IMG/VR virus record: IMGVR_UViG_2648501802_000001
Source of the DNA: a virus
Lineage: Duplodnaviria; Heunggongvirae; Uroviricota; Caudoviricetes
Direction: 5' to 3' (one strand)
DNA length: 36,013 bases
Position numbers and translations under genes: made by a program. Positions 6,428-27,123 of the stretch are shown one piece after another; the first letter of the stretch is position 1; each line of letters begins with the position of its first letter. The notes below the pieces were generated by a model. It saw only the letters and a program-made list of their open reading frames with translations. It made no database searches and had not been told where the DNA came from.

Positions 6428-6537
6428 TCTAAATATGAAAAATCTGCACACCGAAACACTCTTGTAGGTTGATAATTTGCAAACTAGGTGGATTTACTCT
6501 TTGATGTGTAAGAAGTTATACTACAAAAAATTGATTT

Positions 6538-7458
6538 ATGGGCTTGGCGATGTATAACGATCCTTATAGTGACCCAAAAGCGTGGGAATCATATTTCAAA
6601 AATATTGTTTGGCTACATTATAAGCCTGCTAACTGTTGTGACTTGCCAGATGAGCATGGAGGCGACTTTGGGCTGGAGTGTTACACTCTGAGTGGTCATG
6701 TTTTTCAGTGTTACTTGCCTGAGCAGTCGAGTGATATTGATAAGCTTTATAAAGCGCAACAAAAAAAGATTTATACTGATATAAAAAAGTTTTCTCAGGA
6801 TAACATTAAAGAATTAGAGGAGCTTTTTGGCACATTAAAAATTAGCCGCTGGATATTAGCTACACCATATAATAAATCGGCGAAATTAAGTCAATATTGC
6901 ACAAAAAAATCATTAAAAGTAAGAGAGTTAGGGATTTCTTACGTTGCTGATGATTTTCAAATAGTAGTGCAAACAGATCGAAATTATATAGAAGAAGCGT
7001 TCTTTCTTCGCAAAAATAACTATCAATTAAGCTTTAATATAAATGATGCGACGGCTGAGAATGCTGCTAACTTTATTAGTGAAAATACATCTTTTTTAGA
7101 TAAGCTAAATTTAAAATTACCTAAGATAAATGATGATGTATCTAGGCAGGGTTTATATAGAGAGTTTTTAATACAAAAATATCTTGATTATCAAAACTTG
7201 CTGGATGCTTTGAAGAGAGACTGGGTTGATATCTATGAAATTATCTATAACTGTGTTCAACATAGAGAACGTAATTTGGTAGGTCTCTTTCTTCTTACTT
7301 CATCAGATGCGAAACCATCAGATATAATGAAAGATGAAATCGCTTTGTTAAAGAAATGTATTGAAGAGGAAGTTAGTACGCTTAAACAGGCTGACTTGGA
7401 TAAGATAACATGGGGAGTTATTTCTGATTGGCTTATAAGATGCCCTTTAGATTTTTAG
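6538..7458 (+). CDS. Unknown 306-aa protein, first gene of hotspot operon (candidate effector, LmuA-like position)
   Basis: AT-rich ORF immediately after A; 1-nt gap to the next gene; no motif I can assign confidently. Confidence 0.7.
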   Translation: MGLAMYNDPYSDPKAWESYFKNIVWLHYKPANCCDLPDEHGGDFGLECYTLSGHVFQCYLPEQSSDIDKLYKAQQKKIYTDIKKFSQDNIKELEELFGTLKISRWILATPYNKSAKLSQYCTKKSLKVRELGISYVADDFQIVVQTDRNYIEEAFFLRKNNYQLSFNINDATAENAANFISENTSFLDKLNLKLPKINDDVSRQGLYREFLIQKYLDYQNLLDALKRDWVDIYEIIYNCVQHRERNLVGLFLLTSSDAKPSDIMKDEIALLKKCIEEEVSTLKQADLDKITWGVISDWLIRCPLDF

Positions 7459-7459
7459 A

Positions 7460-7936
7460 ATGGAAAAGCAAATGCATATAACGATAGATGAAATAATAGG
7501 AAGGCCGTTTACGTTTAATAAACGACCTGAACATTTGCCATGTGATATGAGACCATTGTGGCGTTGCAGTTTGTTGCTGATAATATTCCTTGTCACAGGG
7601 AGAGCTGGTTGCTGTTCTTTAAAAAAACTTCATTTAATTAATTGGATGTTAAAGTCAGAGAATAATGAAGCAATGTTTGAATTCTGGCTTTTAAACAAAG
7701 AAGGTTTAAAGCCTGAAGTAAGATTGGATCCAACTTTAGATAGAGCAATACAGCTATTATTAGCAGAGGATTTTATTTTGAGAAATGAACGAGCGTTCAA
7801 AATAAATGAAAAGGGGCTTAAGGTCGCTGAGAAATTGCTTTCTCTTGATGTGTTCAAAGAAGAAAGGTTGGTGCTAAATAAACATAAGGCTGGACTGTCC
7901 GAAACTAACATTAATAAAATATTTCAGGTGGGTTAA
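7460..7936 (+). CDS. Small 158-aa protein with winged-helix-like C-terminus (LmuC/kleisin-like position)
   Basis: Translationally coupled on both sides (1-nt gaps); AT-rich. Confidence 0.65.
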   Translation: MEKQMHITIDEIIGRPFTFNKRPEHLPCDMRPLWRCSLLLIIFLVTGRAGCCSLKKLHLINWMLKSENNEAMFEFWLLNKEGLKPEVRLDPTLDRAIQLLLAEDFILRNERAFKINEKGLKVAEKLLSLDVFKEERLVLNKHKAGLSETNINKIFQVG

Positions 7937-7937
7937 T

Positions 7938-9959
7938 ATGTCGTTGGAAATTATTTCATTGGAGTTAGTAGCAAATACTTCGGATGGGCGTTATGGTGTT
8001 AGTATACCTTTTTCAAATGGCTTGTTTTTATTAAGAGTTGAGAATTCTCATGGTAAATCAACTTGCATGAATGGGATTGCATATGCACTTGGGATGGAAA
8101 AGGCATTAGGTGTCGGTTCTGGAAAAATCCCATTCCCTCCATCTTTGACTAGAGCACTAACGACAAAAGATAATGTTGAAGTTAGTGTAATATCATCTTA
8201 TGTTTTGCTAAAAATAAAGAATCATAAGGGAATAGAAGCATCTTTGAAAAGGAATATTATCGGTCACGATAATAATAATGTTATTTATATAGATGAGAAG
8301 AATAATGTAAAAAGTAAGAGTGGTACTTATTTTTTACATAGAGAGGGCGATACTGAAAGGGAACGTGGTTTCTATAAGTGGTTAGCTGATTTTATAGGTT
8401 GGAGTTTGCCAAATGTTCCAAACCATAATGGGAAGGACACTATTCTTTATCCATCCGTACTTTTCCCTGCATGGTATGTTGAGCAAAAAAAAGGATGGTC
8501 GTCAATTATGGCGACTGTACCAACACAATTTGGAATTAAAGAGCCAAAGAAAAGAGCTCTAGAATTTTTAATGTCTCTTGATGTTAATGATAATATTTTA
8601 TTGCGTAGTTCGTTAAGAAATGAACTTGATATTATTTATCATGATTGGAAGTTAATTAAACACAATGCAGAAGTTATTGCTTCTAAATTGTCGTCAGTTG
8701 TCACAGGGATTCCTGAACAACCAGTGGCAAAATTTGATCATTATAAGATAGATTTGATTATTAAAAATGGTAGCGTCGTTAGATCTATTGTTGATGTTCG
8801 TAATGAACTGGAAAAAGAGTTGCAAGAAATTAAGTTTGACACTCTTGGTGAGCAAGAAGAACAAACTTTACAATTATCAGTGGTTAAGTTATTAGGTCAA
8901 AAAAATGATGAAATTAACTCTCTGGAATTAAAGATTAAAGAGATTTGTGAGCATAGAAGTTATATTCAATATCAAATTCAGGCGACCAAAAACAGATTGT
9001 ATAATCTGTTGGAAGATAAAAGGAAGTATGAAGATTTAAAGAAAATATCATCTTCGGATGCGTATAAGTCAACAGATTTAATGTCAAATATTTGTCCGAC
9101 TTGTGGTGCAAGTTATAATGATAATTTGCTAAGTTTTTCATCGCAAGAAAATCTGATGACATATGAAGATAGTTTGAACTTTATTAAAGAGCAAGTAAAA
9201 GCATTTGAGTTTGTTCTGTCGGATAGTGAAAAGCAATTAAAGCTTAAAGATGTTGAGAGGAGTGATTTAGAGGGGGAAATAGCCAAGATTAGAGTTGATA
9301 TTAATGCATTAAGGGAGTCAAAATATCCCTCAATGGTTGTTCAGGAGGAGTTTCTGAGACGTAAAATAAACATTGAGAATAAAATTAATGCCATTAACGA
9401 TGGCATTAAAAGTATATTGGACATTAGACTGGAGTTGGATTCATTACACCGTAGATATAAAAAGCTTATCGCGAAAAGAAAAGGGTTGCCAGATAATTTC
9501 TTGTCGCGTAATGATGCCGATAAGTTAAAATTTCTTAATAAAGAAGTCGTTGCACGATTAGAAAAATATAATTTTACAAGTTTTGATTCTAAACTTGTGT
9601 CAATATCAGAAGATAATTACTTACCTACTAGGGAAGGATATGATATAGGTTTTGACACATCAGCTAGTGATGGAATAAGAATCATTTGGGGTTATTTAAT
9701 AAGTTTATTTGTTGTTGGTTCTAAATTTCAAACAAATCACCCTGGATTGATTGTGTTTGATGAGCCTCGTCAACAAGAAGCAAATAAAGTAAGTTTTGCC
9801 GAGTTACTTAAAGATGCTGCAGAAACAACAAAAGGACAAGGGCAGATCATTTTTGCTACATCAGAAGATGAAAATGTCTTAAAAGAGGCATTAGAAGGGT
9901 ATGACTATACAATGATATCCTTTGATAAGAACAATGGGAAATTGTTGAGGAAATTATAA
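7938..9959 (+). CDS. SMC/Rad50-like ABC ATPase with coiled coil and CxxC zinc hook (LmuB-like)
   Basis: Walker A VENSHGKST (aa 35-42); long charged heptad-rich middle with CPTCG (aa 386-390); C-terminal Walker B GLIVFDEP. Confidence 0.8.
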   Translation: MSLEIISLELVANTSDGRYGVSIPFSNGLFLLRVENSHGKSTCMNGIAYALGMEKALGVGSGKIPFPPSLTRALTTKDNVEVSVISSYVLLKIKNHKGIEASLKRNIIGHDNNNVIYIDEKNNVKSKSGTYFLHREGDTERERGFYKWLADFIGWSLPNVPNHNGKDTILYPSVLFPAWYVEQKKGWSSIMATVPTQFGIKEPKKRALEFLMSLDVNDNILLRSSLRNELDIIYHDWKLIKHNAEVIASKLSSVVTGIPEQPVAKFDHYKIDLIIKNGSVVRSIVDVRNELEKELQEIKFDTLGEQEEQTLQLSVVKLLGQKNDEINSLELKIKEICEHRSYIQYQIQATKNRLYNLLEDKRKYEDLKKISSSDAYKSTDLMSNICPTCGASYNDNLLSFSSQENLMTYEDSLNFIKEQVKAFEFVLSDSEKQLKLKDVERSDLEGEIAKIRVDINALRESKYPSMVVQEEFLRRKINIENKINAINDGIKSILDIRLELDSLHRRYKKLIAKRKGLPDNFLSRNDADKLKFLNKEVVARLEKYNFTSFDSKLVSISEDNYLPTREGYDIGFDTSASDGIRIIWGYLISLFVVGSKFQTNHPGLIVFDEPRQQEANKVSFAELLKDAAETTKGQGQIIFATSEDENVLKEALEGYDYTMISFDKNNGKLLRKL

Positions 9960-10082
9960 ACTTTTATGTTGCTGCATTAGAATGCATGATTATTGTTTAT
10001 CTGTTAAGAGTGCTCCGTGCCAGTGTCGGCGCGGAGAAATCATGTCATGCACCTGCATTAAAACCGACCCATGAAGCGGGCG

Positions 10083-10101
10083 GGCGAGGCGGGGAAAGCA
10101 C
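10083..10101. other. cos site (19-nt cohesive end sequence)
   Basis: GGCGAGGCGGGGAAAGCAC, which matches the P2 cohesive end as I recall it, in the expected position between the old-locus hotspot and Q. Confidence 0.7.
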
Positions 10102-10270: not shown

Positions 10271-11305
10271 TCAGCCGTTGTCAGTGTCCAGTGAGTAGTT
10301 TTTAAAGCGGATGACCTCCTGACCGAGCCAGCCGTTTATCTCGCGGATCCTGTCCTGTAACGGGATAAGCTCATTGCGGACAAAGACCTTTGCCACTTTC
10401 TCTATATCACCCAGCGATCCGACGTTCTCCGGCTTGCCACCCATCAACTGAAAGGGGATGCGGTGCGCGTCCAGCAGGTCAGCGGCGCTGGCTTTTTTGA
10501 TATTAAAAAAATCGTCCTTCGTCGCCACTTCACTGAGGGGGATAATTTTAATGCCGTCGGCTTTCCCCTGTGGGGCATAGAGAAACAGATTTTTAAAGTT
10601 ATTGCGGCCTTTCGACTTAACCATGTTTTCGCGTAGCATTTCGATATCGTTGCGATCCTGCACGGCATCAGTGACGTACATGATGTATCCGGCATGTGCG
10701 CCATTTTCGTAATACTTGCGGCGGAACAGCGTGGCCGACTCATTCAGCCAGGCAGAATTAAGGGCGCTGAGATATTCCGGCAGACCGTACAGCTCCTGAT
10801 TAATATCCGGCTCCAGCAGGTGAAACACGGAGCCGGGCGCGAAGGCTGTCGGCTCGTTGAAGGACGGCACCCACCAGTAAACATCCTCTTCCACACCACG
10901 GCGGGTATATTTTGCCGGTGAGGTTTCCAGTCTGATGACCTTACCGGTGGTACTGTAACGCTTTTCCAGAAACGCATTGCCGAACACCAGAAAATCCAGC
11001 ACAAAGCGGCTGAAATCCTGCTGGGAAAGCCACGGATGCGGAATAAACGTTGAAGCCAGAATATTGCGTTTGACGTAAATCGGTGAGCTGTGATGCACGG
11101 CAGTACGCAGGCTTTTTGCCAGACCGGTAAAGCTGACCGGCGGCTCATACCATCTGCCGTTACTGATACATTCGACGTAATCCAGAATGTCACGGCGGTC
11201 GAGCACCGGAACCGGCTCACCAAAGGTGAATGCCTCCATTTTCGGGGCGCTGGCGGCCATTGTTTTTACCGCAGGTTGCGGTGTTTTCCCTTTTTTCTTG
11301 CTCAT
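10271..11305 (-). CDS. Q: Portal protein
   Basis: 344 aa, P2 gpQ-like; start overlaps the P stop (ATGA). Confidence 0.9.
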   Translation of the reverse strand: MSKKKGKTPQPAVKTMAASAPKMEAFTFGEPVPVLDRRDILDYVECISNGRWYEPPVSFTGLAKSLRTAVHHSSPIYVKRNILASTFIPHPWLSQQDFSRFVLDFLVFGNAFLEKRYSTTGKVIRLETSPAKYTRRGVEEDVYWWVPSFNEPTAFAPGSVFHLLEPDINQELYGLPEYLSALNSAWLNESATLFRRKYYENGAHAGYIMYVTDAVQDRNDIEMLRENMVKSKGRNNFKNLFLYAPQGKADGIKIIPLSEVATKDDFFNIKKASAADLLDAHRIPFQLMGGKPENVGSLGDIEKVAKVFVRNELIPLQDRIREINGWLGQEVIRFKNYSLDTDNG

Positions 11306-13107: not shown

Positions 13108-13250
13108 GGCTACTGAGTCGCGCCCTGCGATTCGCTAAGGTGCTGTTGTGTCAGTGATAAGCCATCCGGGACTGATGGCGGAGGATGCGCATCGTCGGGA
13201 AACTGATGCCGACATGTGACTCCTCTAATCACTATTCAGGACTCCTGACA
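13108..13250. promoter_or_regulatory. Divergent late promoter region P/O
   Basis: Intergenic region between divergent P and O; contains CTGTTGTGTCA (13143-13153), which recurs upstream of V. Confidence 0.4.
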
Positions 13251-13865
13251 ATGGCAAAAAAAGTCTCAAAATTCTTTCGTATCGGCGTTGAGGGTGACAC
13301 CTGTGACGGGCGTGTCATCAGTGCGCAGGATATTCAGGAAATGGCTGAAACCTTTGACCCGCGTGTCTACGGTTGCCGCATTAACCTGGAACATCTGCGC
13401 GGCATCCTGCCTGACGGTATTTTTAAACGTTATGGCGATGTGGTCGAACTGAAGGCCGAAAAGATTGATGACGATTCGGCGCTGAAAGGCAAATGGGCGC
13501 TGTTTGCGAAAATCACCCCGACCGATGACCTTATCGCGATGAACAAGGCCGCGCAGAAGGTCTATACCTCAATGGAAATTCAGCCGAACTTTGCCAACAC
13601 CGGCAAATGTTATCTGGTGGGGCTGGCCGTCACCGATGACCCGGCAAGCCTCGGCACGGAATACCTGGAATTCTGCCGCACGGCAAAACACAACCCTCTG
13701 AACCGCTTCAAATTAAGCCCTGAAAACCTGATTTCAGTGGCAACGCCCGTTGAGCTGGAATTTGAAGACCTGCCTGAAACCGTGTTCACCGCCCTGACCG
13801 AAAAGGTGAAATCCATTTTTGGCCGCAAACAGGCCAGCGATGACGCCCTGATGACGAACTGCTGA
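13251..13865 (+). CDS. O: Capsid scaffolding protein/protease (shortened)
   Basis: MAKKVSKFFRIGVEGDTCDG... ending ...FGRKQASDDALMTNC; about 204 aa versus about 284 aa in P2 as I recall it. Confidence 0.8.
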   Translation: MAKKVSKFFRIGVEGDTCDGRVISAQDIQEMAETFDPRVYGCRINLEHLRGILPDGIFKRYGDVVELKAEKIDDDSALKGKWALFAKITPTDDLIAMNKAAQKVYTSMEIQPNFANTGKCYLVGLAVTDDPASLGTEYLEFCRTAKHNPLNRFKLSPENLISVATPVELEFEDLPETVFTALTEKVKSIFGRKQASDDALMTNC

Positions 13866-13923: not shown

Positions 13924-14946
13924 ATGCGCCAGGAAACCCGCTTTAAATTTAATGCTTACCTGTCCCGTGTTGCCGAACTGAACGGCATCGACGCCGGTGA
14001 TGTGTCGAAAAAATTCACCGTTGAACCGTCGGTCACCCAGACCCTGATGAACACCATGCAGGAGTCCTCTGACTTTCTGACCCGCATCAACATTGTGCCG
14101 GTCAGCGAAATGAAAGGGGAAAAAATTGGCATCGGTGTCACCGGCTCCATCGCCAGCACCACCGACACCGCCGGTGGCACCGAGCGTCAGCCGAAGGACT
14201 TCTCGAAGTTGGCGTCAAACAAGTACGAATGCGACCAGATTAACTTCGATTTTTATATCCGCTACAAAACGCTGGACCTGTGGGCGCGTTATCAGGATTT
14301 CCAGCTCCGTGTCCGTAACGCCATTATCAAACGCCAGTCCCTTGATTTCATCATGGCCGGTTTTAACGGCGTGAGGCGTGCCGAAACCTCTGACCGCAGC
14401 AGTAACCCGATGCTGCAGGATGTGGCGGTCGGCTGGCTGCAGAAATACCGCAATGAAGCCCCGGCGCGCGTGATGAGCAAGGTTACTGACGAGGAAGGTC
14501 ACACGACCTCTGAGGTCATCCGCGTGGGTAAGGGCGGTGATTATGCCAGCCTTGATGCACTGGTGATGGATGCGACCAACAACCTGATTGAGCCGTGGTA
14601 TCAGGAAGACCCTGACCTTGTGGTGATTGTGGGACGTCAGCTACTGGCGGACAAGTATTTTCCCATCGTCAACAAGGAGCAGGACAACAGCGAAATGCTG
14701 GCCGCTGACGTCATCATCAGCCAGAAACGCATCGGCAACCTGCCAGCGGTACGCGTCCCGTACTTCCCGGCGGATGCGATGCTCATCACGAAGCTGGAAA
14801 ACCTGTCCATCTACTACATGGATGACAGCCATCGCCGCGTGATTGAGGAAAACCCGAAACTCGACCGCGTGGAGAACTACGAGTCAATGAACATTGATTA
14901 CGTGGTGGAGGACTACGCCGCCGGTTGTCTGGTGGAAAAAAATTAA
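13924..14946 (+). CDS. N: Major capsid protein (C-terminally truncated by frameshift)
   Basis: 340 aa ending VEKN*; the sequence after an A-run in the +1 frame reads IKVGDFSTPAKATAEPGA* up to 14998. Confidence 0.85.
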   Translation: MRQETRFKFNAYLSRVAELNGIDAGDVSKKFTVEPSVTQTLMNTMQESSDFLTRINIVPVSEMKGEKIGIGVTGSIASTTDTAGGTERQPKDFSKLASNKYECDQINFDFYIRYKTLDLWARYQDFQLRVRNAIIKRQSLDFIMAGFNGVRRAETSDRSSNPMLQDVAVGWLQKYRNEAPARVMSKVTDEEGHTTSEVIRVGKGGDYASLDALVMDATNNLIEPWYQEDPDLVVIVGRQLLADKYFPIVNKEQDNSEMLAADVIISQKRIGNLPAVRVPYFPADAMLITKLENLSIYYMDDSHRRVIEENPKLDRVENYESMNIDYVVEDYAAGCLVEKN

Positions 14947-15001
14947 GGTCGGTGATTTCTCCACACCGGCTAAAGCGACCGCAGAGCCGGGAGCGTAACC
15001 G

Positions 15002-15745
15002 ATGACGAGTCCCGCACAGCGCCACATGATGCGGGTCTCGGCAGCGATGGCCGCGCAGCGGGAAGCCGCCCCGCTGCGACATGCAACTGTCTATGAGCAG
15101 ATGCTGGTCAAGCTGGCCGCAGACCAGCGCACACTGAAAGCGATTTATTCAAAAGAGCTGAAGGCCGCGAAAAAACGCGAACTGCTGCCGTTCTGGTTGC
15201 CGTGGGTGAACGGCGTGCTGGAGCAGGGCAAAGGTGCACCGGATGACATTCTGATGACGGTCATGCTGTGGCGTCTGGATACCGGCGATATTGCCGGTGC
15301 GCTGGAGATTGCCCGTTATGCCCTGAAGTACGGTCTGACCATGCCGGGTAAACACCGCCGCACCCCGCCGTACATGTTCACCGAGGAGGTGGCGCTCGCG
15401 GCCATGCGCGCCCACGCGGCCGGTGAGTCTGTGGATACCCGCCTGCTGACGGAGACCCTTGAACTGACTGCCGCTGCTGACATGCCTGATGAAGTGCGCG
15501 CAAAGCTGCACAAAATCACCGGTCTGTTTCTGCGTGACGGTGGTGATGCCGCCGGTGCGCTGGCTCACCTGCAACGTGCGACACAGCTCGACTGTCAGGC
15601 AGGCGTCAAAAAAGAGATTGAACGACTGGAGCGGGAGCTGAAACCGAAGCCGGAGCCGCAACCCAAAGCGGCCACCCGTGCCACGCGTAAGACCCGGAGC
15701 GTGACACCGGCAAAACGTGGACGCCCGAAAAAGAAAGCCAGTTAA
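15002..15745 (+). CDS. M: Terminase small (endonuclease) subunit
   Basis: 247 aa, P2 gpM-like, in conserved position. Confidence 0.88.
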   Translation: MTSPAQRHMMRVSAAMAAQREAAPLRHATVYEQMLVKLAADQRTLKAIYSKELKAAKKRELLPFWLPWVNGVLEQGKGAPDDILMTVMLWRLDTGDIAGALEIARYALKYGLTMPGKHRRTPPYMFTEEVALAAMRAHAAGESVDTRLLTETLELTAAADMPDEVRAKLHKITGLFLRDGGDAAGALAHLQRATQLDCQAGVKKEIERLERELKPKPEPQPKAATRATRKTRSVTPAKRGRPKKKAS

Positions 15746-19236: not shown

Positions 19237-19776
19237 GTGACATGTAAAAAGAATGAAGGTGATGTTGTAAAGAAAATTGAACTGGTGCTGAAAACAATCG
19301 CGCGGACGGATTCTTATTTAAATTCAGCCAATACTAAATCAACGATATTACTAAGCTTAGCTTCAGCTGTAATTGTTGCTATTATAGCAAATTTTGACAA
19401 AGTTATATGTCTGGTAGATGTGGATAGTGATAGGATTTTTCTCTCTCTTTTATTGATTGTAATAGTTGGGTTATTGGTGATCTCTTTGTTATTTTCTCTA
19501 AAAGGTGTTACTCCAAATATCTCTAAGAGTGATAAGGAGAATACTTTTTCATTTGTTGATATATCAAGTTATTATAGTAGTCTTGATTGCTATTCTAGTA
19601 GTTTTAAGTCAGTGAGTGATCTGGAGTTGTTGGAGCAGTTAATTGCATTGAATTATACTCTTTCCAGAGCATTAACTAGCAAATATGAGATGCAAATCAT
19701 AGCCATTGACTTTATAAAAATGGCTGTTTATGTGCTTTGTTTTTTAATATATGTGGTTGCTTTATCTAATTGGTGA
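19237..19776 (+). CDS. Small membrane protein with three predicted TM helices (candidate effector)
   Basis: 179 aa; GTG start with GGAAGG RBS; hydrophobic stretches ILLSLASAVIVAIIANF, IFLSLLLIVIVGLLVISLLFSL and IIAIDFIKMAVYVLCFLIYVVAL; very AT-rich. Confidence 0.7.
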   Translation: MTCKKNEGDVVKKIELVLKTIARTDSYLNSANTKSTILLSLASAVIVAIIANFDKVICLVDVDSDRIFLSLLLIVIVGLLVISLLFSLKGVTPNISKSDKENTFSFVDISSYYSSLDCYSSSFKSVSDLELLEQLIALNYTLSRALTSKYEMQIIAIDFIKMAVYVLCFLIYVVALSNW

Positions 19777-19786
19777 AGGTTTTTGT

Positions 19787-21139
19787 ATGTCCATAAAGAG
19801 TATTTATTTAGTATTAGATGAAAGGCTGGAAGAGATAATTTCAAAATCAAAATCGCAATCAGTCCATGATGCTATATTTGAATCAGTGGATAATACACAG
19901 TTGGCCACGGAGAGCTTAAGTAAATCTTCTGGTTTCGTAAGAAGTTCTATTTCATTGAAAAAAGATGTAGGTGGAGCTGATGTTCAAAGTTATCAGGTGA
20001 AAGATATTGTTAGAAATAAATTTGGCAAGCACGGTCCACTCATGACAAGTTTTGGATGTCATCCGGACTTTAATAAAATGGATGATGGTGAGGTGAGAAA
20101 TGGTTATTCCATTACCATGTTTATGGATATAATCGGCTCAACTAAACTTGGGGTTGTTTTTCCACCAGAAATAGTATTTAGAATCAAAAATGATATTATA
20201 AGATGTGCGATCGAAACAGTGAATGCATTTGATGGTCACGTCCATAGAATTATGGGTGATGCAGTAATGGCATTTTTCCGAAGTAATGACCGATATAAAA
20301 ACAATAAGATCGCAGACAGTGCAATTGATGCAATAAACTGTGCCGTTGTTTTGATTGAAATGTTCAAGGGGGTTGTTATACCTAAATTGAGTGATTTGGG
20401 AGTTGACGAAAACTTAGGAATAAGAATTGGTCTTGACTATGGCCCTCACGAGGAAGTGGTGTGGTCAAAATATGGCTATATGGAAAGTCATGAAGTGACT
20501 GCGACATCTTTTTTTGTTGATGTTGCGGCAAAACTTCAGCAAAAAGCTCCTAAAAACTCAATTATGATAGGTGCAAGTTTTGTAGAGTTATTAGGCCTTG
20601 ATGATGTTCAATTAAAACATAAAATTAACAGAAACAATGGCGTAGAACACAAGGAATTGTATTTAACCCCAAATTATAAAGATGCTTCAGGCAAACCAAT
20701 AAATTACAGACAATATGTATTTGATAACGAACGTTATTGTAATTTGCTGCCTATAAATGATGAGGGGGGTAAACTCATTGTAAAAGCAACGCTTAAGAAG
20801 AGTGAAAATGATGTGTCTGATGATGAGTATATTTGTTGTTCTCGAATGATAAAAAAGGGTATGGGTATCTCATTTAAAGGGTACTATTACTCACAAGAAC
20901 AGTACTCTAATCCCAGGTTCAAATTTCGTGTCGAAAATACAGGTCCTGATGCAGGTAATGTTGATAATAAGGGTAATCATGAGTCATATGAGGTAGCAAG
21001 GTACACTGGCGAGCGTTATTTTGCTAAGCATTGGGAAGATTGTCATTACAAAGGACTGCATTATATGTTTGTATCTTTTTGGAATGGGGATCAATTAATA
21101 GAAAGGGAGAGGTGTTTTTCAGTTTTTATTAACGATTAA
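19787..21139 (+). CDS. Class III nucleotidyl cyclase-like protein with uncharacterised N- and C-terminal extensions
   Basis: Motifs FMDIIGST (aa ~112) and HRIMGDAVMAFF (aa ~154), with the two Asp residues about 44 residues apart; ATG 19787 with GGTGAAGG RBS (the track ORF starts at 19751); AT-rich. Confidence 0.75.
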   Translation: MSIKSIYLVLDERLEEIISKSKSQSVHDAIFESVDNTQLATESLSKSSGFVRSSISLKKDVGGADVQSYQVKDIVRNKFGKHGPLMTSFGCHPDFNKMDDGEVRNGYSITMFMDIIGSTKLGVVFPPEIVFRIKNDIIRCAIETVNAFDGHVHRIMGDAVMAFFRSNDRYKNNKIADSAIDAINCAVVLIEMFKGVVIPKLSDLGVDENLGIRIGLDYGPHEEVVWSKYGYMESHEVTATSFFVDVAAKLQQKAPKNSIMIGASFVELLGLDDVQLKHKINRNNGVEHKELYLTPNYKDASGKPINYRQYVFDNERYCNLLPINDEGGKLIVKATLKKSENDVSDDEYICCSRMIKKGMGISFKGYYYSQEQYSNPRFKFRVENTGPDAGNVDNKGNHESYEVARYTGERYFAKHWEDCHYKGLHYMFVSFWNGDQLIERERCFSVFIND

Positions 21140-25396: not shown

Positions 25397-25970
25397 CATC
25401 CGGCGCGGTGCTGGTATCTGTTGCCGTCACCGCGTCAATGTAATCCAGCACAGCGTTAAGCCGGGTTGTTTCTGCCTGCGTCAGTTTACGTCCGGCCTGC
25501 AATTTCAGTTGAATCAGACTGATGGAAGCCATTGCAGTATCAATCAGCGACTGGCGCTGTGCTTCTGCTGCATCTACTGCGGCGCTATGCTGTGCCTCGG
25601 TATCCGTCACCCATTTCTCACCATCCCATTTATCATATGGCGTTAATGGGGCGATAGTGGTTGTATTTTCAGGGTAATCACCCGGAGCGGTGATTTCTTT
25701 TGATTCTCCTGTTTCGGTGCTATAGACCGTTTCACCGCGATGGTCTGGCACATATTCCCATGAGTTAAAATCTGCAGAACGGCAGATTGCATAACCAGCC
25801 TTATGTGTGCCAGGGGCATCTAAACAGGAACATGCCGGAATGCCGACACCAACGGCAAGATATTCATTTGAAGTGGAAATATATTCCCGTGTTTCACCAT
25901 CATAGTTATAAACGGTAACATCCCCTGCCTTTGTTGCAATGAGCTCACTATTTAATATTGCTTTATGCAT
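25368..25970 (-). CDS. Alternative tail fibre assembly chaperone (Tfa') in the invertible segment
   Basis: 200 aa, convergent with the forward Tfa; start overlaps the stop of the alternative fibre segment (ATGA). Confidence 0.7.
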   Translation of the reverse strand: MHKAILNSELIATKAGDVTVYNYDGETREYISTSNEYLAVGVGIPACSCLDAPGTHKAGYAICRSADFNSWEYVPDHRGETVYSTETGESKEITAPGDYPENTTTIAPLTPYDKWDGEKWVTDTEAQHSAAVDAAEAQRQSLIDTAMASISLIQLKLQAGRKLTQAETTRLNAVLDYIDAVTATDTSTAPDVIWPELPEA

Positions 25971-26464
25971 CAGGCTGCCCTCACGATATAGTTAAATGCA
26001 ATATTACGCGGACGCGTTTCTGAGGCTGCGGCACCTAAACCAGCCACTGATTGTTTATATGTTTTAAAGGTTCCATAATCCGGTGCTGGTAATCCAGCAT
26101 CGTTTGTGTTTCCTCTTTTGATAATGTCAGTGCCACTATTTACCCAGCTTTCATCAAAATAGAAATTAATCGTTGCATCAGTCACAATCGTGGATCTTGA
26201 CGGTAATCCATGAGCATGATCCTCCGTTGCATACCCCTGAATACTTAAAATAGAGCGACCTGTATCAATCCCCCGCCCGTCATCCCAGCCACGAATAAAC
26301 TCACCACGTAAATCAGGCAATTTATTTGTCGGGTAAGCCTTTGCCAGTTCCGGGTATTCTTCAGCCGAAAAAGCAGCCCCGTTGCATTTCAGCCAGCCTG
26401 TTGGCGGCGTAGCTGAAGGCCAAGGAACTGGTATGCCAACAGGCAACGCAGAACCTTCTCCCAA
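25970..26464 (-). CDS. Promoterless alternative tail fibre C-terminal segment (H')
   Basis: Fibre-tip-like sequence on the minus strand with no ATG start (the track M is a TTG); reading frame stays open up to the right crossover site. Confidence 0.6.
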   Translation of the reverse strand: MGEGSALPVGIPVPWPSATPPTGWLKCNGAAFSAEEYPELAKAYPTNKLPDLRGEFIRGWDDGRGIDTGRSILSIQGYATEDHAHGLPSRSTIVTDATINFYFDESWVNSGTDIIKRGNTNDAGLPAPDYGTFKTYKQSVAGLGAAASETRPRNIAFNYIVRAA

Positions 26465-26472: not shown

Positions 26473-26607
26473 TTTATGGAATCGGTTAAATATGATGTTG
26501 AAAGAAGGGAGTGTCCTAGTATTGATTGTTAGATAAAAATGGAAAGTGCTGATTGTAACGGTATATTTTAAGATGGTAACACCAAATGGTGCTACCATCT
26601 TTATTAG

Positions 26608-26925
26608 TTATCTGTTCCTTCTGAGGATTCCGCTACTCCCTTGTGTTGTAGGGTTTAATTTTTTCCAATAATGATAACCTTGTGATGTAATCCTTAGAGA
26701 GGCAGTATCTACACTCCATCCATCAATACTTTCAGGAGAACCATCGAAGATTACCTTTCCTGTAAGATACCCATCGTCATGCAGAAAGGCGATATATCCA
26801 TAAACTTCTTTTAAATCACCAATTTCATTGACTAGGCGTTCCCACGCTTGAACAGTGATTCTCTCTGGATAGGCTTCGACAAAATATTTCAGTGTGGTAG
26901 TTTTTTTATTGGTATCGATGTTCAT
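26608..26925 (-). CDS. Orphan 105-aa hypothetical protein in the Z/fun hotspot position
   Basis: ATG with AAGGA RBS; AT-rich; divergent from the invertase gene. Confidence 0.6.
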   Translation of the reverse strand: MNIDTNKKTTTLKYFVEAYPERITVQAWERLVNEIGDLKEVYGYIAFLHDDGYLTGKVIFDGSPESIDGWSVDTASLRITSQGYHYWKKLNPTTQGSSGILRRNR

Positions 26926-27123
26926 CAGATTTTCCTTTTATTGAGGTCAACCTATCTTACCATACTTATTTGTTTCACATGGGAATGCTAAGTGGGCTAT
27001 GTATCCACTATCAGTAAATATTCTTATCCAGCAAGATTACTGTAACTGAGAGCTCCATAGCCTTGTCCGCTTGTACATATATAGATAATTCTGTGTCATT
27101 ATTCTGTTTTTATAGGGATTTTT

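Follow-up and report, generated by a model that had tools for sequence, protein, structure and literature searches.

What is encoded by the three-gene operon that a P2-like prophage carries in the hotspot occupied in P2 by old and tin, and does it represent a new kind of defence system or a divergent member of a known one? The question arises from the window, a stretch of 36,013 nucleotides of viral DNA (IMG/VR record IMGVR_UViG_2648501802_000001) whose positions are used throughout. The evidence assembled below makes it very likely that the operon encodes a Lamassu system of type II (three-gene, short-form) with the order LmuA-LmuC-LmuB, directed against phages or other mobile elements and carried by the P2-like E. 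coli prophage as lysogenic-conversion cargo. As a representative of a known subtype it is ordinary prophage defence cargo and not a new kind of system; the clade to which it belongs falls within the known Lamassu family, and its protective function is a prediction.

At the level of genome organization, the cassette lies between the gene for replication endonuclease A (up to 6427) and, on the minus strand, that for the portal protein Q (10271-11305). The 19-nt sequence GGCGAGGCGGGGAAAGCAC at 10083-10101, in the flank and outside the system, was recognised as a cohesive-end sequence of P2 type, and we take it to be the P2 cos. This is the location described for the P2 hotspot, which adjoins cos between gpA and gpQ at the site of old and tin (Rousset et al. 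2022, PMC9122126), in agreement with the preliminary description of the locus, made from the letters alone. That description had also pointed to AT-rich genes coupled through 1-nt gaps, and both features are borne out: the GC content is 0.31-0.35 over 6501-10000 as opposed to 0.51-0.57 in both flanks, and a single nucleotide separates stop from start at each junction (TAG at 7456-7458 followed by ATG at 7460, and TAA at 7934-7936 followed by ATG at 7938). Three open reading frames occupy the plus strand, lmuA at 6538/6550-7458 (306/302 aa), lmuC at 7460/7472-7936 (158/154 aa) and lmuB at 7938-9959 (673 aa), the last preceded by a Shine-Dalgarno-like AGGTGG upstream of its ATG. The leader between gene A and lmuA, 110-122 nt long, holds a sigma-70-like promoter candidate on the plus strand (TTTACT-18-TATACT, 6493-6522), which was found by consensus scan only (9/12 matches). 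In strain FDAARGOS_1249, the leader is interrupted by an IS5 element. The same context is seen in the RefSeq annotation of a strain whose sequence equals that of the cassette query (6428-9959; 3,532 bp, 100% identity).

The identity of the three proteins was established by profile comparison. PADLOC Lamassu models match all three over their full length, with PDLC03852 as the best model for LmuA (1e-29), PDLC03871 for LmuC (2.5e-23) and PDLC03863 for LmuB (1.1e-98). The same three models are matched by the validated "Lamassu-Mrr" system of E. coli SE15, and the validated LmuA and LmuC of B. cereus match PDLC03852 and PDLC03871. The bit scores of the window proteins are 102, 81 and 330 for LmuA, LmuC and LmuB, respectively, against approximately 350-375, 160-190 and 351 (the last from a partial sequence) for validated Lamassu-Mrr. 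When the three proteins were scanned at E<=1, PADLOC returned Lmu models only and none of Wadjet (JetABCD), PARIS, Gabija or Septu; the partners JetA/B/D, AriB, GajB and PtuB were without a match among the three at the same threshold. Pfam and NCBIfam scans of the window proteins gave nothing significant. With profiles built from the window families, LmuA and LmuC of the validated SE15 and B. cereus systems went undetected and LmuB was barely detected; therefore, the link to Lamassu is carried by the PADLOC models together with structure. Searches of PDB chains by sequence and by profile yielded only weak matches to the Rad50 P-loop and noise from coiled coils, and missed the solved Lamassu chains, so that it was fold comparison alone that connected the window proteins to them. 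The preliminary description had read the order effector, small protein and SMC-like ATPase as that of type II Lamassu and had proposed HMM and structure comparisons; the LmuA-LmuC-LmuB order given by the PADLOC models and the matches of all three proteins sustain that reading.

The third gene encodes LmuB (673 aa, 7938-9959, plus strand), an SMC/Rad50-like ATPase and predicted sensor that PDLC03863 covers over residues 1-669 and that is also matched by nine further PADLOC LmuB models. Its AF2 model (pLDDT 85) displays a head, two helical arms and an apex. The Walker A motif V34-ENSHGKST-42, with K40, lies at 8037-8063 on the plus strand, and its N36, G39, K40 and S41 are invariant in a set of 33 homologues, the most distant of which share 27% identity with the window protein. 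A zinc hook, C386-P-T-C389-G (9093-9107, plus strand), sits at the coiled-coil apex between the two long helical arms of the model (216-372 and 409-543), and C386, P387 and C389 are invariant in the same set. So are A576, S577, D578, D608, E609 and P610 of the C-terminal head (9660-9767, plus strand), which contains a signature-like S575-A-S-D-G579 and the Walker B L604-IVFDE-P610. In a Foldseek comparison of the model with the PDB, the top five matches are Lamassu LmuB chains (2e-14 to 5e-12), 9uxh_F (2e-14), 9hqx_B, 9ux7_A and 9hqu_A among them, followed by Rad50 (5e-11 to 1e-5), SMC and MukB. The assignment of the third protein as an SMC/Rad50-like zinc-hook ATPase, made from its VENSHGKST, CPTCG and LIVFDEP motifs, is thus upheld on every point, including the expectation that it would model as a protein of this kind.

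This kinship with Rad50 and SbcC, together with the partition-like genes that are found in about a quarter of P2 hotspots (PMC9122126), would fit a module with no defensive role, devoted to SbcCD/Rad50-like repair or to prophage maintenance or partition, and located in the hotspot by chance. We regard this as very improbable. The best sequence and structure matches of the three proteins are LmuA, LmuB and LmuC and not Rad50 or SMC, the Mre11/SbcD phosphoesterase partner is absent, and the genes form a horizontally mobile, AT-rich cassette that occurs in contexts of the defence type.

The middle component, lmuC (7460-7936, plus strand), encodes 158 aa, or 154 aa from the RefSeq start at 7472. 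PDLC03871, which the validated LmuC proteins of SE15 and B. cereus also match, covers residues 17-156. Winged-helix signals in this protein are weak (Pfam HTH_45, E 0.13; Sso10a, E 0.12). The small LmuC that distinguishes type II operons is here located between lmuA and lmuB, and it is kept in every related locus examined.

The effector gene, lmuA, is annotated in RefSeq from 6550 to 7458 on the plus strand (302 aa), and this start is likely to be the correct one rather than the alternative ATG at 6538 (306 aa), because most homologues measure 300-302 aa. The preliminary description had found no known effector domain in this protein and had suggested a new effector type. That suggestion does not hold: PDLC03852 covers the protein end to end, a PD-(D/E)xK fold is predicted, and nuclease effectors of the restriction-endonuclease class already belong to the described Lamassu repertoire. 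In the AlphaFold model (pLDDT 91.6), a PD-(D/E)xK restriction-endonuclease-fold domain (residues 1-156; 6550-7017, plus strand) is followed by a helical C-terminal domain of LmuA type (residues 157-302; 7018-7455, plus strand), whose tail D-W-L-I-R-C-P-L-D-F is conserved at 7426-7455. An N-terminal effector joined to an LmuA-type (ABC-3C) docking/oligomerisation domain, as expected of Lamassu, is therefore the architecture found in the window LmuA. Structure searches with the model retrieved the solved LmuA structures as best matches, and then FokI, CdiA-CT, Mrr-like and Can2 nuclease domains; the Mrr-like matches include AF1548, LlaBIII and Avs4.

Inside this fold, a predicted catalytic core, G38-D39-x-G41-x-E43 ... 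Q53-C54-Y55, could be placed at 6664-6714 on the plus strand. Residue counts were obtained from 151 representatives of the LmuA family with pairwise identity of at most 50%. D39 and Q53 are present in all of them, and position 43 is occupied by E in 138 and by D in 13. Position 55, the canonical site of the strand lysine, holds Y in 146/151 and F in 5/151 and K in none. A second motif, K73-x3-D77-x2-K80 (6766-6789, plus strand), lies in the model on the helix (residues 63-84) that immediately follows strand 50-54, and may supply a relocated catalytic lysine; K73 is found in 151/151, D77 in 148/151 and K80 in 149/151. Pfam Mrr_cat, CTD6 and MC2 gave no match in the window proteins nor in any of the 44/44 members of the LmuA alignment at E<=1; in a B. 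cereus control, Mrr_cat, CTD6 (1e-40) and MC2 (7e-49) all match. LmuA thus appears, from its modelled fold, to be an effector of the restriction-endonuclease (Mrr-model) class with a rewired catalytic site. Its presumed DNase activity is not guaranteed, because all members examined have Tyr or Phe in place of the strand lysine of the (D/E/Q)xK motif.

Two further readings bear on this unusual site. In one of them, the complex is a Lamassu but the LmuA domain is no DNase, serving instead as a DNA-binding or non-hydrolytic module or acting on another substrate, so that toxicity and defence would come about otherwise. The absence of lysine at position 55 and the lack of a Pfam Mrr_cat match would agree with such a domain, and a clade of short Lamassu seemingly without an effector domain has been described (PMC12663957). 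However, D39, E/D43, Q53, K73, D77 and K80 are nearly invariant across the 912 detectable cluster representatives, as is usual for an active site that works, and the model shows a full-size, confidently folded restriction-endonuclease core. Relocation of catalytic residues is, in addition, well documented among PD-(D/E)xK enzymes. A domain of this non-hydrolytic kind is therefore unlikely. Somewhat less doubtful, but still rather unlikely, is the idea that the clade possesses an undescribed restriction-endonuclease site, in which Tyr or Phe replaces the strand lysine and a helix lysine of K73-x3-D77-x2-K80 completes catalysis, along with a docking/oligomerisation domain of its own marked by the invariant tail W-x3-C-P-L-D-F. 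Were this true, the clade would constitute a distinct Lamassu subtype whose cleavage chemistry, substrate or release might differ from those of the Cap4 and Mrr types.

How a nuclease-bearing Lamassu of this composition may operate can be outlined by analogy with the solved Cap4-type complexes (PMC12663957; bioRxiv 10.1101/2025.03.14.643221). Two LmuB subunits, joined at the CPTC zinc hook, and one LmuC would bind one LmuA monomer by its helical C-terminal domain, forming an A1:B2:C1 complex in which the nuclease would be kept inactive. LmuB and LmuC would sense the aberrant DNA of a replicating invader, which could consist of free ends, origins or palindromes, and ATP turnover at the LmuB heads, involving K40 of Walker A and the canonical D608-E609 of Walker B, would release LmuA. 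Once free, LmuA would oligomerise through its C-terminal domain, thereby bringing the N-terminal PD-(D/E)xK domains together, and the assembled nucleases would be expected to cut DNA indiscriminately, leading to abortive infection. It has been demonstrated that Lamassu-family systems, including Lamassu-Mrr, act by abortive infection and that effector, ATPase and lmuC are all required (10.1101/2022.05.11.491447). A separate question concerns the neighbourhood of the cassette: P2-type phages have cos ends and replicate by rolling circle, which raises the issue of how such a phage escapes triggering an end-sensing Lamassu that is encoded beside its cos site.

The target of such a machinery may also be looked at differently. 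DdmABC and related Lamassu hit plasmids as well as phages (10.1101/2022.05.11.491447; 10.1101/2025.03.14.643221), systems from P2 hotspots can act against P2 relatives (PMC9122126), and the cassette moves between mobile elements, all of which would suit a main role in excluding plasmids or rival mobile elements in the manner of Ddm, or in competition among P2-type phages, over a broad anti-phage defence. This priority is improbable, a little more so than an LmuA without DNase activity, since validated Lamassu-Mrr protects against lytic coliphages (10.1101/2022.05.11.491447); the machinery would in any case be the same, so that plasmid exclusion is compatible with the Lamassu system that we favour.

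Various searches have also documented the distribution of the cassette. It is present in 32/5,426 complete E. coli genomes, and a 'distant' blastn of E. coli genomes gave no diverged copies beyond these same 32. A search of the INPHARED phage genomes returned no match. Outside this species, a cassette of 300 / 152-161 / 673-679 aa is kept in Shewanella, Pseudomonas, Cronobacter, Klebsiella and one cyanobacterium, and in these five other genera it stays a unit, with gene gaps of 0-3 nt in most loci and varied mobile contexts. Given this conservation, the reading frames are not chance ones. The clade of LmuA proteins of about 300 aa, from Proteobacteria and cyanobacteria, comprises at least 912 representatives when clustered at 50% identity. 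RefSeq names the three genes mostly "hypothetical protein", with generic or doubtful names in a few genomes. The exact cassette had already been catalogued in the table of Rousset et al. 2022 as P2-hotspot system #51 (PMC9122126); it occurs in that table only and not in the file with at least one cloned construct (pFR106). The "1 TM in protein 2" of the table is probably a buried hydrophobic helix of LmuC. Two published systems were considered as possible equivalents and set aside: the validated P2 'three genes with no clear domain' of Rousset et al., as catalogue entry #51 is the only one that matches the window sequences, and the 'Lamassu missing a known effector' of a 2026 P2/P4 preprint, which is an LmuBC+SMEK cassette from P4.

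With the present assignment, the three genes gain names in the 32 complete E. coli genomes, and a large, compact clade of Lamassu effectors is defined that lies outside Pfam and NCBIfam coverage. The P2-like prophage carries two separate defence systems, the Lamassu described here and a Pycsar system at 19237-21139. The Lamassu cassette opens no new kind of biology. Its clade offers a small (302-aa) effector of restriction-endonuclease type, variant in its active site, on which one could examine how general the sequestration, release and oligomerisation of Cap4-type systems are.

The comparison with known systems places the operon more precisely. P2 old and tin are lysogen-expressed exclusion cargo of the same gpA-cos-gpQ hotspot (PMC9122126), but their proteins are unrelated to those of the window, and the PADLOC models Old and Tin match none of the three. 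Rad50-Mre11 and SbcCD share with the window LmuB the ABC ATPase head, the antiparallel coiled coil and the CxxC zinc hook, and SbcCD has been proposed as the evolutionary ancestor of Lamassu (PMC12663957). Unlike in these complexes, the coiled coil of the window protein is much shorter, its partners are LmuC and an effector with a restriction-endonuclease fold, and its gene resides in a mobile AT-rich cassette; Pfam, PADLOC and NCBIfam scans found no Mre11/SbcD phosphoesterase in either gene beside lmuB.

Lamassu-Mrr, the Lamassu family with a restriction-endonuclease LmuA, was validated from E. coli O150:H5 SE15 (Millman et al. 2022, 10.1101/2022.05.11.491447). It has in common with the window the order LmuA-LmuC-LmuB, a short LmuB with a single CxxC hook, an LmuC of about 155-168 aa and a restriction-endonuclease fold at the LmuA N-terminus. 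BLASTP, hmmsearch and hhalign gave no usable alignment between the window and validated Lamassu-Mrr for LmuA and LmuC, and a marginal one for LmuB. The catalytic motifs were for that reason, no computed LmuA alignment having been obtained, matched by eye: G-D-x-G-x-(D/E) ... Q-C-x can be read in both, as GGAGDKGRDI...YQCKHY in Lamassu-Mrr (SE15, B. cereus) and GGDFGLEC...FQCYLP in the window. The window LmuA is about 75 aa shorter and has QxY in place of QxK, and its LmuB exceeds that of Lamassu-Mrr by about 50 aa and bears a canonical Walker B DE. Since CTD6 (PF20282) and MC2 (PF20288), which like Mrr_cat are present in the B. cereus Lamassu-Mrr control, are absent in the window, we class the system as a divergent sister clade of Lamassu-Mrr rather than among its typical members.

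The other close relatives are DdmABC and the Cap4-type type II Lamassu (V. cholerae; S. enterica LmuACB; PDB 9ny5, 9nxx, 9hqu, 9hqx, 9hr5, 9uxh). Their nuclease belongs to the Cap4/DUF4297 subfamily whereas the window has a FokI/Mrr-like core, and the LmuA C-terminal domain and the LmuC of Cap4-type systems fall into other families (CTD7/MC3; 10.1101/2025.03.14.643221). The zinc hook that is invariant in the window LmuB is lacking in V. cholerae LmuB (PMC12663957), and the Walker B is deviant in the Cap4 type (PMC12663957; 10.1101/2025.03.14.643221) but DE in the window. The same three components are present, the effectors of both consist of a nuclease of the PD-(D/E)xK superfamily and, after it, a helical C-terminal domain, and it is these systems that provide the best structural matches for the LmuB and LmuA of the window.

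The cassette comprises three open reading frames on the plus strand, lmuA (6538/6550-7458, 306/302 aa), lmuC (7460/7472-7936, 158/154 aa) and lmuB (7938-9959, 673 aa). As read from the sequence, a single nucleotide separates the lmuA stop codon (TAG, 7456-7458) from the ATG at 7460, and another one the lmuC stop codon (TAA, 7934-7936) from the lmuB ATG at 7938, which is preceded by AGGTGG. This agrees with the preliminary description, which had proposed three AT-rich genes with 1-nt gaps; its sole amendment is the start of lmuA, more likely located at 6550 than at 6538 since homologues measure 300-302 aa and the RefSeq start is 6550. The cassette constitutes an AT-rich insert, as its GC content is 0.31-0.35 across 6501-10000 versus 0.51-0.57 in both flanks. 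A sigma-70-like site at 6493-6522, detected as a consensus match only, could drive expression of the cassette in the lysogen.

The identity of the three products was provided by PADLOC models, which match LmuA (PDLC03852, 1.1e-29), LmuC (PDLC03871, 2.5e-23) and LmuB (PDLC03863, 1.1e-98) over essentially their full length. Nine additional LmuB models match the ATPase, and no PADLOC model of other defence systems matches any of the three proteins. Together with the fold matches of LmuA and LmuB described below, this bears out the Lamassu-like order of effector, small protein and SMC-like ATPase initially suggested. NCBI names many homologues of the 154-aa LmuC (P0235-P0248; window gene 7460-7936) "serine/threonine protein kinase", and in one E. 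coli genome a gene that the cassette match overlaps carries this name too. The label seems to be a misannotation that has been propagated, since LmuC models match and no kinase family does.

Regarding its genomic setting, the cassette (query 6428-9959) matches E. coli ST2747 at 100% identity. Among 5,426 complete genomes of E. coli, 32 carry it at ≥99% identity, on the chromosome every time. Its genes are mostly annotated as "hypothetical protein", and a few have been given unspecific names (for example "ATP-binding" and "coiled-coil domain-containing"). In FDAARGOS_1249, which is among the 32, an IS5 (L007, 2637-3605) interrupts the short leader that runs from gene A to lmuA and holds the promoter-like site; all three lmu genes are nonetheless intact. 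In the annotated strain the cassette resides in a P2-like prophage, with the gene for the replication endonuclease (gpA) on one side and that for the portal (gpQ) on the other. The window carries at 10083-10101 a 19-nt sequence that we take to be the P2 cohesive end (cos). The gpA-cos-gpQ interval is a defence hotspot that harbors old and tin in reference P2 (Rousset et al. 2022, PMC9122126), so that the location first proposed, the tin/old hotspot between gene A and cos, holds. The same cassette was already catalogued as hotspot system #51, "AAA_13/DUF3732", with 79 occurrences (Table S5B, PMC9122126). The LmuA and LmuC sequences of this entry are identical to those of the window, and its LmuB is N-terminally truncated. 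This LmuB, WP_106121066, starts at M44 and lacks the Walker A (window 7938-8069), which may be the reason for the bare label of the cassette. The cassette is absent from the constructs found in the cloning table of that study.

The LmuA-LmuC-LmuB cassette recurs in other genera, where its components have the same sizes and its genes are, for the most part, as closely spaced. It lies among housekeeping genes in Shewanella baltica, on the chromosome of Pseudomonas sp. MM211, in a Leptolyngbya island that also encodes ParAB, an integrase and a NERD-UvrD helicase, in a Cronobacter P2-type hotspot flanked by a Phage_GPA and a portal gene, and in a Klebsiella island adjoining AlpA and DUF3987 genes. 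In this distribution the cassette behaves as an autonomous defence module with horizontal mobility. In Klebsiella pneumoniae (L009, 7519-9420) lmuB is called as 633 aa, starting 130 nt past lmuC rather than directly after it, either by a miscalled start or by an N-terminal lesion.

At the structural level, the AF2 model of LmuB, built on a 33-sequence alignment (pLDDT 85), displays an ABC head split by two kinked helical arms of ~130 residues each, with the CPTC hook at a low-confidence apex. In a Foldseek search against the PDB, the first five matches are Lamassu LmuB chains (9uxh_F, 2e-14; 9hqx_B; 9ux7_A; 9hqx_f; 9hqu_A), followed by Rad50, SMC, MukB and JetC. The assignment of the 673-aa protein as an SMC/Rad50-like ATPase, put forward as a refutable claim, therefore withstands this comparison. 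The expected motifs, VENSHGKST (K40), CPTCG (386-390) and LIVFDEP (604-610), are all present, and the Walker A, CPTCG and LIVFDEP are invariant in the alignment of 33 homologues, down to 27% identity with the window protein. By its length and single hook, this LmuB falls among the Lamassu forms that Haudiquet et al. (PMC12663957) call "short", although it keeps the canonical Walker B D-E, unlike many of them. A repair or maintenance module is highly improbable, given that the cassette has no Mre11/SbcD partner and its best matches are Lmu proteins.

The effector belongs to a large and uniform family: a word-indexed search with LmuA recovered 147 homologues, and a profile search run exhaustively on 1.84 billion representatives yielded 912 clusters (E≤1e-3), nearly all of the best 150 being ~300 aa. 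Its AF2 model (pLDDT 91.6) contains an alpha-beta-beta-beta-alpha-beta core (residues 1-156) and a helical bundle (157-302). Since its best Foldseek matches are solved LmuA chains (9nxx_D, 1.4e-4; 9hr5_C), LmuA is predicted to be a nuclease with a restriction-endonuclease fold. Lamassu effectors already include Cap4, Mrr and PDDEXK (10.1101/2022.05.11.491447; PMC12663957). The architecture had been correctly identified at the outset, but the suspected new effector type finds an ordinary answer in a known nuclease class.

Within this core, residues were counted in 151 representatives with pairwise identity ≤50%, aligned to the family profile. D39, Q53 and K73 are present in 151/151, G38 and G41 in 150/151 each, K80 in 149 and D77 in 148; position 43 is E in 138 and D in 13. 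Position 55, the strand 3 place of the (D/E/Q)xK lysine, is Y in 146 and F in five, and K in none. As Phe is tolerated there, a catalytic role of the Tyr hydroxyl is improbable. The PD-(D/E)xK-type superfamily has known cases of relocated catalytic residues, and the invariant K73, in the helix after strand 3, stands out as the candidate for a lysine that has moved. The missing canonical lysine could also denote a non-catalytic nuclease domain, an unlikely situation considering that six polar residues are maintained across the 151 representatives examined. Matching by eye suggests that GGAGDxGRD...YQCKHY of validated Mrr-type LmuAs corresponds to GGDFGxE...FQCYxP in the window family. The extreme C-terminus, D-W-L-I-R-C-P-L-D-F, is nearly invariant (W294 in 145/151, C298 in 146/151) and represents a candidate docking or latch element.

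The prophage bears a second AT-rich island among its late genes (19237-21139, plus strand, GC 0.32-0.37), a Pycsar system formed by PycTM (19237-19776, plus strand, 179 aa; PADLOC 8.5e-29; Pfam PycTM) and the PycC cyclase (19751-21139, plus strand, 462 aa; PADLOC 1.6e-128; Pfam Guanylate_cyc and AGS_C). Hence, each of two cargo sites in this prophage houses a defence system of its own. A further GC dip (0.37) occurs at 26501-27000 in the late region, near small minus-strand ORFs (25970-26464 and 26608-26925). At 13185-13865 (plus strand; 14824-15432 in the related locus L001) lies a short capsid scaffolding gene, a gpO homologue; in the related strain ST2747, RefSeq lists it as a pseudogene without its C-terminus and also marks an internal stop in a DUF2732 gene. 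Possibly the prophage is defective yet retains its defence cargo.

In the solved Cap4-type systems of S. enterica and V. cholerae, a single LmuA is held by two LmuB protomers and one LmuC, which sequester its C-terminal oligomerisation domain; ATP has to bind and the heads to engage, and after release LmuA tetramerizes, building an active nuclease site whose non-specific DNA cleavage aborts infection (PMC12663957; 10.1101/2025.03.14.643221). Lamassu-family systems, including Lamassu-Mrr, act by abortive infection and need the ATPase, the effector and lmuC (Millman et al., 10.1101/2022.05.11.491447). By analogy, two LmuB and one LmuC would hold one LmuA through its C-terminal domain until ATP binding and head engagement release it to tetramerize, cleave DNA non-specifically and abort infection; these dynamics are borrowed from the Cap4-type model, the component identities being established here. 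No part of this model is missing from the window system: LmuB has an intact Walker A, Walker B and signature motif as well as a zinc hook, LmuC is present, and LmuA has two domains and a conserved constellation of acidic and basic residues. The same machinery could also serve mainly against plasmids or between phages, a role that is quite improbable.

To establish the subtype meaning of the PADLOC models, validated Lamassu-Mrr proteins (Millman et al., supplementary file 11) were scanned. The best models for E. coli SE15 LmuA, LmuC and LmuB are the same three as for the window, and those for B. cereus 172560W LmuA and LmuC are the window's LmuA and LmuC models. Despite these common models, the systems are not close in sequence: window-family profiles do not detect the LmuA and LmuC of SE15 or B. 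cereus, and detect their LmuB marginally. Pfam and NCBIfam scans of the three window proteins gave no significant match. CTD6 (1e-40), MC2 (7e-49) and, weakly, Mrr_cat are found in the B. cereus control but neither in the window proteins nor in any of the 44 aligned LmuA sequences. The clade is recognised by existing PADLOC models and lies outside Pfam coverage. The large ~300-aa LmuA clade is mildly interesting, as it appears to combine a rewired restriction-endonuclease active site with its own C-terminal domain. As a whole the system is familiar: its family and its hotspot are both known, current models detect it, and it already figures in a published catalogue. Because detection of the validated proteins fails and the Pfam families of the control are absent, it is placed in Lamassu, as a sister clade that has diverged from the Mrr/restriction-endonuclease subtype.
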